The notes beneath the pieces were generated by a model. The model was not told where the DNA came from. It did not search any database and saw nothing but the letters and a program-made list of their open reading frames with translations. Shown one piece after another: positions 40,859-41,823 of a DNA stretch of 64,000 nucleotides. This DNA comes from Escherichia phage MIZ6, in sequence record OR192075.1, one strand, 5' to 3'. Numbering within the stretch: the stretch's first letter is position 1; every line of letters begins with the position of its first letter. The position numbers and the translations under genes are program-made.

Positions 40859-41077
40859 TTATTTATATCGCTTTCTCTCGCGACGTTTTTGATCTTCTTC
40901 CTTGATAGAGTTAAATGCATCAAAAAGACACATGACACTGATAATGAACATAACCGTATTTTCTACGATATCCCACGGCTTCGCATCAGTACAGATCCCC
41001 CAAACGGTAAGAAATGCAAATAAGGCAGAAGAGATCACAAGCATGATACTTGCTAAGATATAAAAAGTCATTTTCAT
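40859..41077 (-). CDS. small hydrophobic protein
   Basis: 72 aa, two TM helices, basic C-terminus. Confidence 0.4.
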   Translation of the reverse strand: MKMTFYILASIMLVISSALFAFLTVWGICTDAKPWDIVENTVMFIISVMCLFDAFNSIKEEDQKRRERKRYK

Positions 41078-41268
41078 GGTTTTACCTCAATTCTTCGATA
41101 TTCATCACACATCCACGCAGTAAGCAAGAATCCCAACACATAAGCAACAAAATACGTTAATGCTTCTTCTGGTTCGGTGCTATGCGCCATCATCAGACCA
41201 GCGAGAAAGGTCTTAACAATTACATTTAAAATAATTAGCCACGCAAATAATTTCATCGTTTGCCCCAT
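41074..41268 (-). CDS. small hydrophobic protein
   Basis: 64 aa, two TM helices. Confidence 0.4.
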   Translation of the reverse strand: MGQTMKLFAWLIILNVIVKTFLAGLMMAHSTEPEEALTYFVAYVLGFLLTAWMCDEYRRIEVKP

Positions 41269-41477
41269 TTCGGTCGAGTCTTTTCAAACTTATACATTCC
41301 GTAACAATCTCGAATCATCCACGTAACAAGAGCACCAGTCAACACAGACAATACACAGAAGAAGTAAAACGGTCCGGTTGCATTATCAACATGAGCAAGC
41401 CAGGTAAAGAAAACACATGCTAAGAATGTAAAGAACATCATAAAGCACAAGAAAGCGAAATATTTTATACTACTCAT
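41253..41477 (-). CDS. small hydrophobic protein
   Basis: Start set at MSSIKYF, where ATG overlaps the upstream TGA (ATGA). Confidence 0.4.
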   Translation of the reverse strand: MSSIKYFAFLCFMMFFTFLACVFFTWLAHVDNATGPFYFFCVLSVLTGALVTWMIRDCYGMYKFEKTRPKWGKR

Positions 41478-41584
41478 AGCGCCACCATACAACAGATCAT
41501 AAGAAAACCCAACGCAATAAGAATTGCATCAAATTTAGTGAACTCAGGCCCACCTATCAACATCATTCGTTCTATTTCGTTCAT
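41475..41584 (-). CDS. candidate 36-aa hydrophobic peptide
   Basis: Hand-translated MNEIERMMLIGGPEFTKFDAILIALGFLMICCMVAL; stop overlaps the next start; below the ORF-track cutoff. Confidence 0.3.
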
Positions 41585-41823
41585 AGCGTACAAAGCCATT
41601 TAAAAGCACCACATAAAGCGAGCAGAATACTAGGTATAAACGAGACCAAAACAAGACTACAAAAATCATCTAAGGTAACACCGGAATAGCTACCTACTGT
41701 AACAACACCGATCATCAGACACAGAAAGAAAACAAATGCAATCATAAACAAAGTATTGCTAAACAGTTTAGTGATCATTAGACACCCCACGACGATCAAT
41801 TTCAAAAACTTTTTTATCATCAA
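41581..41823 (-). CDS. small hydrophobic protein
   Basis: 80 aa, two to three TM helices. Confidence 0.4.
   Translation of the reverse strand: MMIKKFLKLIVVGCLMITKLFSNTLFMIAFVFFLCLMIGVVTVGSYSGVTLDDFCSLVLVSFIPSILLALCGAFKWLCTL

Follow-up and report, generated by a model that had tools for sequence, protein, structure and literature searches.

The genomic region

The window analysed here is a stretch of 64,000 nucleotides from Escherichia phage MIZ6 (OR192075.1), a Krischvirus (RB49-like T4-type coliphage), and 58 Krischvirus genomes align with it at identities of 90-99.6%. On its minus strand lie five consecutive small ORFs, here called A to E, which are the homologues of RB49 ORF122c, ORF121c, ORF120c, ORF119c and ORF118c, respectively. 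They are found together with the following features, given from the promoter downwards:

42171-42200, minus strand: sigma-70-type early promoter (TTGACA-18-TAAGAT) of ORF124-dmd-A-B-C-D-E, 10/12 matches in a promoter scan
41981-42139, minus strand: ORF124 homologue, 52 aa, hydrophobic, first cistron, PHROG 16462 (unknown function), dN/dS 0.09
41768-41971, minus strand: dmd antitoxin, 67 aa, from Pfam PF17587 (7.6e-16), PHROG 2102 and the annotations of relatives
41581-41778, minus strand: ORF A, 65 aa, predicted two-helix hairpin, PHROG 17225
41474-41584, minus strand: ORF B, 36 aa, PHROG 15282 (profile of 36 positions)
41253-41477, minus strand: ORF C, 74 aa, predicted two-helix hairpin, basic C-terminal tail, PHROG 15290
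41074-41256, minus strand: ORF D, 60 or 64 aa, predicted two-helix hairpin, acidic loop, PHROG 15717
40859-41077, minus strand: ORF E, 72 aa, predicted two-helix hairpin, highly charged C-terminal tail
40710-40858, minus strand: conserved non-coding 3' tail of the putative operon, four predicted hairpins (MFE -60.6 kcal/mol, z = -3.2)
40688-40709, minus strand: intrinsic terminator ending the putative operon (terminator scan), invariant in 18 sequences
40628-40656, minus strand: following early promoter, TTGACA-17-CATAAT, which would serve ORF117 downstream (promoter scan)

The chain of five ORFs is already known: it has been in GenBank since the deposit of the RB49 genome, each member has a PHROG family of its own, and RB49ORF118c-122c were tabulated with TMHMM helices in 2006, along with 124c and 103c-112c (Nolan et al., PMC1524935, Additional file 2). 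All five are annotated as "hypothetical" in the Krischvirus genomes of the phage collection. The novelty of the array is low, and the least expected item is the conserved non-coding tail. The initial annotation of the window had placed at 40859-41823 a minus-strand series of five hydrophobic ORFs, linked by overlapping stop and start codons, a description that stands except for three details of size or start.

Gene starts and junctions

ORF A, at first taken to be 80 aa long, has 65 aa: no start other than ATG 41778 is shared by all relatives, and the 80-aa form is closed in 4 of 14 of them (MIZ5, JSE, Makalu002 and SSG23), in which a 1-nt indel leaves six open codons and no start upstream of that ATG. 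ORF C is corrected from 75 to 74 aa, and its start combines a GGTGG Shine-Dalgarno sequence with the ATGA overlap. The 64-aa start assigned to ORF D (ATG 41268) is also conserved, with a 16-nt overlap with the upstream gene, but the start at the ATGA overlap (ATG 41256), which has GGGG 7-10 nt upstream, gives 60 aa, the length in most GenBank records and that of the PHROG 15717 profile (60 positions). ORF E has a strong GAGG Shine-Dalgarno sequence, whose spacing is favourable for the first Met alone, and an MKM N-terminus that is invariant in the 21 sequences examined.

The 36 aa given to ORF B proved correct. Its start codon shares an ATGA with the stop codon of ORF A and is kept in 13 of 14 phages, most relatives have the gene annotated with a length of 111 nt, and its PHROG profile agrees in length; the remaining phage, Phi1, has ATA at this position and must use an internal ATG, which gives 30 aa. 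In the window ORF B lacks a Shine-Dalgarno sequence, and the internal start (ATG 41566) is preceded by AGGA in 12 of 14 relatives; the 30-aa form may be made independently. A 41-aa start for ORF B was rejected, as an in-frame TGA cuts it off in 12 of 14 relatives.

ATGA-type chaining, as initially claimed, joins A/B, B/C, C/D and D/E in the window and does not extend to the dmd/A junction, where the 3' end of dmd overlaps the ORF A start by 11 nt (ATGATCACTAA) or, in the G5 variants (e.g. JSE and Makalu002), by 1 nt (TAATG). All four array junctions are overlaps of 4 nt; of the 23 remaining junctions in this 28-gene stretch, only one is (P ~3e-4). The A/B overlap is kept in 17 of 18 sequences and the other three in 18 of 18; at B/C the overlap is ATGA in 16 sequences and GTGA in the two of the L014/L015 lineage, in which the ATG to GTG change leaves start and overlap intact, and at C/D the stop is one codon earlier in SSG23. 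These conserved overlaps, together with weak or absent Shine-Dalgarno sequences, suggest that the five cistrons are translationally coupled.

Conservation and coding evidence

A tblastn search with the concatenated proteins found all five ORFs in 58 of 58 Krischvirus genomes, with identical lengths and a constant span of 875 nt. Since the core gene gp3 finds 57 Krischvirus records, against 58 with the array, the array is universal in the genus. Lengths are also identical in four more divergent metagenomic relatives (78-94% nucleotide identity), and so the conservation of the reading frames, which the initial annotation had named as its own test, was borne out in both sets of genomes. Among 14 phages there are zero indels over ~940 nt (41789-40846), and in-frame dN/dS is 0.49 for A, 0.33 for B, 0.08 for C, 0.27 for D and 0.10 for E. 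Across all comparisons the in-frame values of the five ORFs range from 0.05 to 0.58, and the off-frame values, among the 14 phages, from 0.3 to 6, mostly near or above 1, with one frame each of A and D as exceptions (0.3-0.6). ORF C is the most conserved of the five (0.05-0.14) and ORF A evolves fastest (0.31-0.58 against divergent relatives); the values are 0.10-0.11 for E, 0.19-0.27 for D and, in the most divergent relatives, 0.14-0.17 for B at dS 0.75-0.97. In the TM2 half of ORF A, pN/pS rises to 0.78 with conservative replacements; positive selection was considered here and rejected, as the pattern is one of relaxed constraint in which diversifying selection is not demonstrable.

The lack of indels, the constant lengths and the low in-frame dN/dS lead us to regard the hydrophobic mini-genes as real, including the 36-aa one, as had been proposed, with purifying selection in all five frames. 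By these sequence comparisons, A to E are genuine protein-coding genes under purifying selection and specific to Krischvirus. Two metagenome assemblies have a 1-nt insertion by which B and C become a single ORF of 103 aa, but the two contigs are identical over 1831 nt and therefore are not independent evidence.

Membrane character

The hydrophobicity attributed to every ORF was confirmed by hydropathy, by the TMHMM helices published for every RB49 orthologue and by the hairpin of the AlphaFold2 model of ORF E (helices 2-29 and 34-71, pLDDT 80.6). A, C, D and E are predicted to form two-helix hairpins of 60-74 aa, and ORF B to have a polar N-terminus and a single C-terminal hydrophobic helix. 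The positive-inside charge distribution predicts an N-in/C-in topology for A, C, D and E, which would place acidic loops in the periplasm in all four and basic or charged tails in the cytoplasm in C (+7/-2), D (+3/-3) and E (+7/-4). Loops and tails are strongly conserved in ORFs C and E. A Foldseek search of viral structures with the ORF E model gave nothing below E = 0.9, only generic hairpins.

Given the 20 TM ORFs of RB49, a run of at least five consecutive ones has a permutation P of ~3.5e-4 against a background of ~274 RB49 ORFs, a total taken as an assumption, and one 22-ORF stretch holds 13 of the 20 small TM ORFs. Hydropathy and the published RB49 table (PMC1524935, Additional file 2) agree with the earlier observation that the array mirrors another at 37099-39288, with soluble small proteins in between. 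No significant paralogous pair was found among A to E or with that array, and thus the two are not recent duplications.

Operon context and 3' tail

ORFs A to E probably make up the last five of the seven cistrons in an early operon that runs from promoter to terminator. The gene immediately before ORF A is dmd, the 'discriminator of mRNA degradation'. The RB49 counterpart of the first cistron, RB49ORF124c, has TMHMM helices at 7-29 and 33-50 (PMC1524935, Additional file 2). The promoter site is also annotated as a promoter in phage GEC-3S (locus 5527-5555, offset 36644), and the terminator, which is annotated in GEC-3S and RB49 as well, forms the stem-loop part of a cassette boundary of the PeSL type. 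The ORF117 promoter lies within a 61-nt repeat with further copies at 39645-39705 and 42602-42662, and at the upstream boundary of the block the scans found a terminator (42689-42669) and a promoter (42651-42623). 57B, which adjoins the array, is the anti-CBASS protein Acb1 (1.5e-51), and an LPD25-domain protein is also nearby.

No late promoter was found upstream of the array, and the only nearby TATAAATA, at 40867-40860, is at the 3' end of ORF E and directed away from the array. The endolysin (PF13539, Peptidase_M15_4, not T4 e lysozyme) is located at 36681-37070, 3.8 kb downstream and in another transcription unit; it has an adjacent hydrophobic-ORF array of its own, and at least two terminator/promoter boundaries separate it from A to E.

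Each of the 58 Krischvirus genomes carries one copy of the non-coding tail, with an identity of at least 95%, and the diversity of its two conserved blocks is 0.006-0.010, versus a synonymous diversity of 0.045-0.13 in the flanking genes. Its predicted fold and its conservation are those of what is possibly an RNA element; it has only one compensatory pair, and an Rfam scan gave no match at the gathering threshold. Three other identities for this stretch were rejected. A 65-aa ORF over it (40634-40831) is not a gene, since its frame is broken by 1-2-nt indels in relatives; the GC-rich stretch after ORF E has a tRNA-like look, but ARAGORN finds no tRNA in the window; and kinship with T4 rnaC/rnaD, which are syntenic (between 57B and e), was dismissed because the similarity is not beyond that of shuffled controls.

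Family searches

Scans of A to E and ORF124 with Pfam, PHROGs, NCBIfam and PADLOC returned genus-specific PHROGs of unknown function and otherwise only sub-threshold noise. None of A to E matched known anti-defence or defence families, for which the neighbours Dmd and Acb1 were the only matches, and the only PADLOC result was that of ORF A to a generic 4TM effector (0.056). Protein, phage and E. coli genome searches found no homologues of A to E outside the genus: a word-index search of 5.8 billion proteins with ORFs C and E gave only Krischvirus-like sequences (at least 83% identity), an HMMER profile of ORF E recovered a single 50%-identity cluster, its own, from 1.84 billion representatives, and of 50,697 phage genomes searched by tblastn with the concatenated proteins, only the 58 Krischvirus records were hit. 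Two contigs were found in IMG/VR, both Krischvirus-like. A blastn search of 5,426 E. coli genomes gave no match, and a host or prophage origin was rejected on this basis.

Discussion

The explanation that we favour as a whole, and consider somewhat better than even, is that A to E are genus-specific, translationally coupled early cistrons whose products would act in the inner membrane, perhaps in a protective accessory role. The proteins are most likely early inner-membrane accessory proteins. In the opening minutes of infection host RNA polymerase would transcribe the operon, the antitoxin gene dmd included, and a ribosome finishing one cistron would re-initiate at the overlapping ATGA, so that five proteins from one mRNA would be inserted side by side in the host inner membrane. 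That they are dispensable and protect the infected cell at the membrane is our best guess, held at rather less than an even chance, and it draws on guilt by association and shared architecture. They might block the entry of DNA from superinfecting phages, as T4 Imm does, or neutralise membrane-bound abortive-infection or defence effectors, and the latter option fits with the co-transcription with dmd and the position beside acb1/57B. Against this explanation counts the weak constraint on ORF A (dN/dS up to 0.58). Downstream of dmd, T4 has no hydrophobic mini-genes save Sp with its signal peptide, and there is thus no conserved linkage of dmd to membrane genes across T4-like phages.

T4 Imm, which acts in superinfection exclusion (PMC7677548), is the product of an early accessory gene in a plastic region. 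It is found in the host inner membrane and, at 83 aa, is very small; two of its segments are hydrophobic, and its C-terminal tail carries charge. ORFs A, C, D and E share with it two predicted helices, an early sigma-70 promoter upstream and a predicted membrane location, whereas Imm is encoded by a single gene and not by a coupled chain of five. A Pfam scan of A to E up to E = 1 gave no match to PF14373 (Imm_superinfect), against 7.4e-16 for the T4 Imm control, and hhalign of the ORF E profile with Imm gave a probability of 1.2%. In RB49, the position of T4 imm (uvsX-gene 43) holds only a 62-aa ORF. Comparison of T4 Imm and Sp with the window and its small ORFs found no similarity; a match at 62769-62858 (E = 0.29) was spurious, being antisense inside a 466-aa plus-strand ORF (61370-62770). 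T4 Spackle (gp61.3) also acts in superinfection exclusion (PMC7677548) and is likewise made early and targeted to the envelope, its gene lying two places beyond dmd in T4, but it is a soluble periplasmic protein of 97 aa with a signal peptide, not a hairpin, and has no similarity to A to E.

The block also resembles the cassettes of ORFans with PeSL-type early promoters described in the hyperplastic regions of RB49 and phi1 (Arbiol et al. 2010, PMC2839356; PMC4122927). Genus and type of region are the same, each end has a terminator stem-loop with a sigma-70 promoter (42689-42623 and 40709-40628), and there are three local copies of the promoter/5'UTR repeat. However, PeSL cassettes were described as varying between RB49 and phi1, whereas the array block is fixed, at constant length, in 58 of 58 genomes, among which no presence/absence polymorphism was found. 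ORFs A to E are not discussed in the PeSL papers (PMC2839356, PMC4122927).

Among the other readings, it is conceivable, though unlikely, that A to E are effectors of host takeover, which would aid phage growth by inhibiting inner-membrane machines (transport, division, envelope synthesis or respiration) or by partly depolarising the membrane, in the manner of small membrane regulators or type I toxins. Their size and hydrophobicity are those of such bacterial proteins, the 36 aa of ORF B are within the range of type I toxins, the promoter scan points to early expression, and the conserved loops and tails of C and E could be interaction surfaces. Nothing computational separates this reading from the protective one, but no similarity to any family of small membrane regulators or toxins was found, and the neighbours are counter-defence genes rather than shut-off genes. 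A more elaborate form of the protective role, in which A to E, perhaps with ORF124, form a hetero-oligomeric inner-membrane complex for counter-defence or exclusion alongside Dmd and Acb1, with the RNA tail controlling the mRNA, seems improbable to us. Such a complex would assemble co-translationally from a single membrane-tethered early mRNA, and the tail would govern how stable that mRNA is, where it is localised or its stoichiometry, or else would function as a small RNA in its own right.

It is similarly doubtful that C, D and/or E time lysis by controlling the permeabilisation of the inner membrane as holin-, antiholin- or pinholin-like proteins. All three have the layout of class II holins or pinholins such as S21 of lambdoid phage 21 (60-74 aa, two helices, N-in/C-in, charged C-terminal tail), and in them are found the small size, at least one TMD and the charged hydrophilic C-terminus typical of holins. 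The lambda S107/S105 protein begins with Met-Lys-Met, a dual-start motif, and the same N-terminus, invariant in ORF E, would yield both a holin and an antiholin, as for lambda S; the Shine-Dalgarno spacing of ORF E, however, suits the first Met only. The endolysin of the genus, being Peptidase_M15_4 and not T4 e lysozyme, is in keeping with a lysis role, but it does not adjoin the array or share its transcript in a late lysis cassette, and with its distance, separate transcription unit and own hydrophobic array it argues against such a role, as do the early sigma-70 promoter of the operon and the lack of a late one upstream. In the search of holin family profiles, the best match was that of ORF C to Phage_holin_3_6 (E = 0.076), at 13.5 bits below the cut-off of 28.4, and no holin family reached threshold. 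Least credible, and in our view very nearly negligible, is that these are not five functional genes at all and represent frameshifted relics of one polytopic gene or frames kept open by chance or by RNA or DNA constraints. Each ORF is indeed in the -1 frame relative to the preceding one, B and C are fused in the two metagenome assemblies, and ORF A is weakly constrained; but in 17-18 of 18 sequences each start codon sits right on the overlap, every frame has a synonymous excess with off-frames mostly near 1 or above, a fusion would violate the positive-inside pattern, and apart from the one B-C variant a fused homologue is absent from the 5.8 billion and 1.84 billion proteins searched.

As it stands, the array is ordinary and of little importance, its genes long annotated and its helices listed in 2006. 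What is added here is solid comparative evidence that all five, ORF B included, are real genes, together with corrected starts, the operon context with dmd and next to acb1, and the clustering of 13 of the 20 small TM ORFs of RB49. Should one of the ORFs turn out to encode a factor that excludes phages in the manner of Imm, or one that inhibits a membrane-bound defence effector, it would represent a new family in the phage counter-defence repertoire, with relevance to therapeutic Krischvirus phages such as phi1 and JSE. The 2006 survey is a prediction table only, without conservation, coupling or operon structure (Nolan et al., PMC1524935), and it lists comparable series of small neighbouring ORFs for membrane or secreted proteins in Aeh1, RB43 and 44RR (Additional file 2).

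Gene boundaries and conservation

The five minus-strand ORFs of the array, A to E, are real and conserved genes whose products are tiny and hydrophobic, and conserved overlaps link each gene to the next. In a search with the 1.8 kb around the array, 58 phage records matched at 90-99.6% identity, every one of them from Krischvirus (RB49-like T4-type coliphages of the Straboviridae). A to E are all present in 58/58 Krischvirus genomes; a core gene retrieves 57 records. The RB49 counterparts, RB49p122 to RB49p118, are each annotated as "hypothetical protein" and lie directly 3' of dmd. 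Boundaries were set from an alignment of 14 Krischvirus genomes and 4 more divergent metagenomic relatives:

41581-41778, minus: ORF A, 65 aa, start ATG 41778
41474-41584, minus: ORF B, 36 aa, start in an ATGA overlapping the stop of A
41253-41477, minus: ORF C, 74 aa, ATGA overlap
41074-41256, minus: ORF D, 60 aa from an ATGA start, GGGG upstream
40859-41077, minus: ORF E, 72 aa, GAGG Shine-Dalgarno sequence

An array of five hydrophobic ORFs at 41823-40859 had been described in the initial annotation, and its existence stands, with the lengths of A, C and D now corrected. The 80-aa form of A proposed there, which begins at TTG 41823, is not open in MIZ5, JSE, Makalu002 and SSG23, where a G4/G5 run polymorphism leaves six open codons and no upstream start. 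For D, the ATG of the 64-aa form is likewise conserved. The 36-aa length of B is borne out, with its ATGA start overlapping the stop of A; the 41-aa form annotated in RB49 is interrupted by an in-frame TGA in 12/14 relatives. In Phi1, ATA replaces the start of the 36-aa form and an internal ATG must serve, giving 30 aa. This internal ATG is preceded by AGGA, a Shine-Dalgarno sequence, in 12/14 Krischvirus, but the window and RB49 carry ATAGAA there, so that in these B can be started only through the ATGA overlap (41555-41584). Two metagenomic relatives of one divergent lineage (L014, L015) have GTGA in place of ATGA at ORF C, and thus both start and overlap outlast a change of start codon.

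The initial annotation had staked the reality of these genes on conservation of their frames in related phages, and this was found. Among the 14 genomes there are 0 indels between 41789 and 40846, with frequent indels on both flanks, and dN/dS (Nei-Gojobori) is 0.49 for A, 0.33 for B, 0.08 for C, 0.27 for D and 0.10 for E, against values mostly of about 1 or above off-frame, the exceptions being one off-frame each for A (0.56) and D (0.31). In relatives at 78-94% nucleotide identity the length of each ORF is unchanged, and dN/dS is 0.31-0.58 for A, 0.14-0.17 for B (dS 0.75-0.97), 0.05-0.14 for C, 0.19 for D and 0.11 for E. Overlaps of 4 nt are found at 4/4 junctions within the array versus 1/23 other junctions across the 28 genes of this stretch (P about 3e-4). 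A run of five transmembrane (TM) ORFs among the 20 of RB49 has a permutation P of about 3.5e-4, and the presence of 13/20 within 22 consecutive ORFs was reached in 0 of 200,000 permutations.

Some variation was observed at the junctions. The 3' end of dmd (41785-41816) shows homopolymer-length polymorphisms among Krischvirus (G4/G5 near 41789, A6/A7 near 41816), which could reflect either sequencing errors or true differences between the phages; they shift the frame near the gene end, so that Dmd is 56, 64 or 67 aa long, and shorten the overlap of dmd with ORF A from 11 nt to 1 nt (TAATG). In two ENA assembly contigs, L021 (1560-1620) and L022 (ERZ28657742, ERZ27255568), one extra G within the B/C overlap (CTATGGAGT) makes B and C a single 103-aa ORF (protein P0002). 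These contigs are identical over 1831 nt and probably have one source, and the fusion may occur naturally or may be an assembly artefact. Compared with L014, 40396-41778 is strongly mosaic between adjacent genes, with nucleotide identities of 83% (A), 78% (B), 94% (C), 87% (D), 83% (E), about 95% (3' tail) and 97% (ORF117, 100% at the amino-acid level), which suggests recombination or very uneven constraint.

A to E were not found in non-Krischvirus phage genomes or in E. coli genomes. Among 5.8 billion proteins, searched with C and E, the only matches were of at least 83% identity, and a profile search with ORF E against 1.84 billion representatives gave nothing beyond its own cluster. Each ORF forms a separate PHROG of no assigned function, and no Pfam, NCBIfam or PADLOC model was matched at threshold. 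They are thus genus-specific ORFans, already annotated and TM-predicted, of a kind common in T4-like hyperplastic regions.

Predicted membrane proteins

Hydropathy indicates two helices each in A, C, D and E and a single C-terminal helix in B. TMHMM predictions for the RB49 orthologues were published by Nolan et al. 2006 (PMC1524935, Additional file 2):

TMHMM helices in RB49 proteins (PMC1524935)
118c (E): 5-27, 37-59
119c (D): 5-27, 32-49
120c (C): 7-29, 33-55
121c (B): 13-35
122c (A): 5-27, 42-64
124c: 7-29, 33-50

An AlphaFold2 model of ORF E, built from the alignment, is a helical hairpin (helices 2-29 and 34-71, pLDDT 80.6). The hairpin proteins share a uniform charge distribution, with N-termini of +1 and acidic loops nearly without Lys/Arg; charged C-terminal tails are present in C (+7/-2), D (+3/-3) and E (+7/-4). 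Under the positive-inside rule, this pattern predicts N-in/C-in hairpins with short periplasmic loops. Paralogy was not detectable among A to E, nor between them and the other hydrophobic array at 37099-39288.

Transcription unit and neighbourhood

A to E lie in one unit with dmd, behind an early-type promoter:

42689-42669, minus: terminator, upstream boundary
42651-42623, minus: promoter, upstream boundary; ORF125 next
42200-42171, minus: second sigma-70-type promoter, followed by ORF124 (52 aa, hydrophobic), dmd and A to E
after E, minus: untranslated tail, 150 nt
40709-40688, minus: terminator, downstream boundary
40656-40628, minus: next early promoter

Promoters and terminators are annotated at this locus in the GEC-3S record, and our calls concur with the GEC-3S and RB49 annotations. 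A 61-nt direct repeat (39645-39705, 40607-40667 and 42602-42662; 66-89% identity) spans early promoters and the beginning of their 5'UTRs, and 2/3 copies adjoin GC-rich terminator stem-loops; it corresponds to the PeSL composite motifs of RB49 and phi1 (Arbiol et al. 2010, PMC2839356).

Dmd matches Pfam PF17587. The "57B" gene (42696-43166, minus), labelled '57B RNA ligase' in RB49-like records, encodes Acb1, an anti-CBASS phosphodiesterase (Pfam PF23474, 1.5e-51), and an LPD25-domain protein is encoded at 39297-39623. With these three genes, the stretch is a counter-defence neighbourhood.

The tail between the stop of E and the terminator (40710-40858, minus) is more conserved than the neighbouring genes, with a pairwise diversity of 0.006-0.010 in two blocks versus a synonymous diversity of 0.045-0.13 in flanking genes. 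It is restricted to the genus, at one copy per genome (58/58 Krischvirus), and is predicted to fold into four hairpins (z = -3.2). No Rfam family was matched at threshold, T4 rnaC and rnaD show no resemblance to it, and covariation support was not obtained, as variation is too low (one compensatory pair only). The tail could act as a functional RNA, or it could stabilise the mRNA. The T4-type late-promoter consensus TATAAATA at 40860-40867 (minus) overlaps the final codons of E and is directed into the tail; with 4 matches in the window versus about 6 expected by chance, the count alone is not significant. From this site, a late transcript of about 165 nt could run to the terminator.

Possible function

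A to E would be transcribed early and translated by termination-reinitiation, and their proteins would then enter the host inner membrane together. By size, architecture and timing, the nearest functional analogue is T4 Imm (83 aa, two hydrophobic segments, charged tail), although A to E fall outside the Imm family when compared with its family profile and T4 Imm. With Dmd and Acb1 encoded alongside, a role in counter-defence is suggested. As the leading reading, we tentatively propose that the proteins may be protective, acting in exclusion or anti-defence at the membrane. It is unlikely that they serve instead as effectors of host takeover, and very improbable that they are non-functional relics. 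Lysis control is a doubtful explanation: C, D and E have the layout of class II holins and ORF E starts with an invariant Met-Lys-Met, but the idea does not hold up against the timing, the place of the array with respect to the endolysin or the outcome of the family searches. Unless experiments reveal the function of A to E, their interest is low.

Two other loci were observed. The uvsX-gene 43 gap, which in T4 holds beta-gt, 42, imm and imm.1, contains a single 62-aa ORF in RB49 (15543-15731), so imm is absent from that syntenic position. The 37099-39288 array lies directly upstream of a Peptidase_M15_4 endolysin (36681-37070) on the same (minus) strand, and it is this array, not A to E, that is the natural place to seek holin-like or spanin-like genes of the genus.
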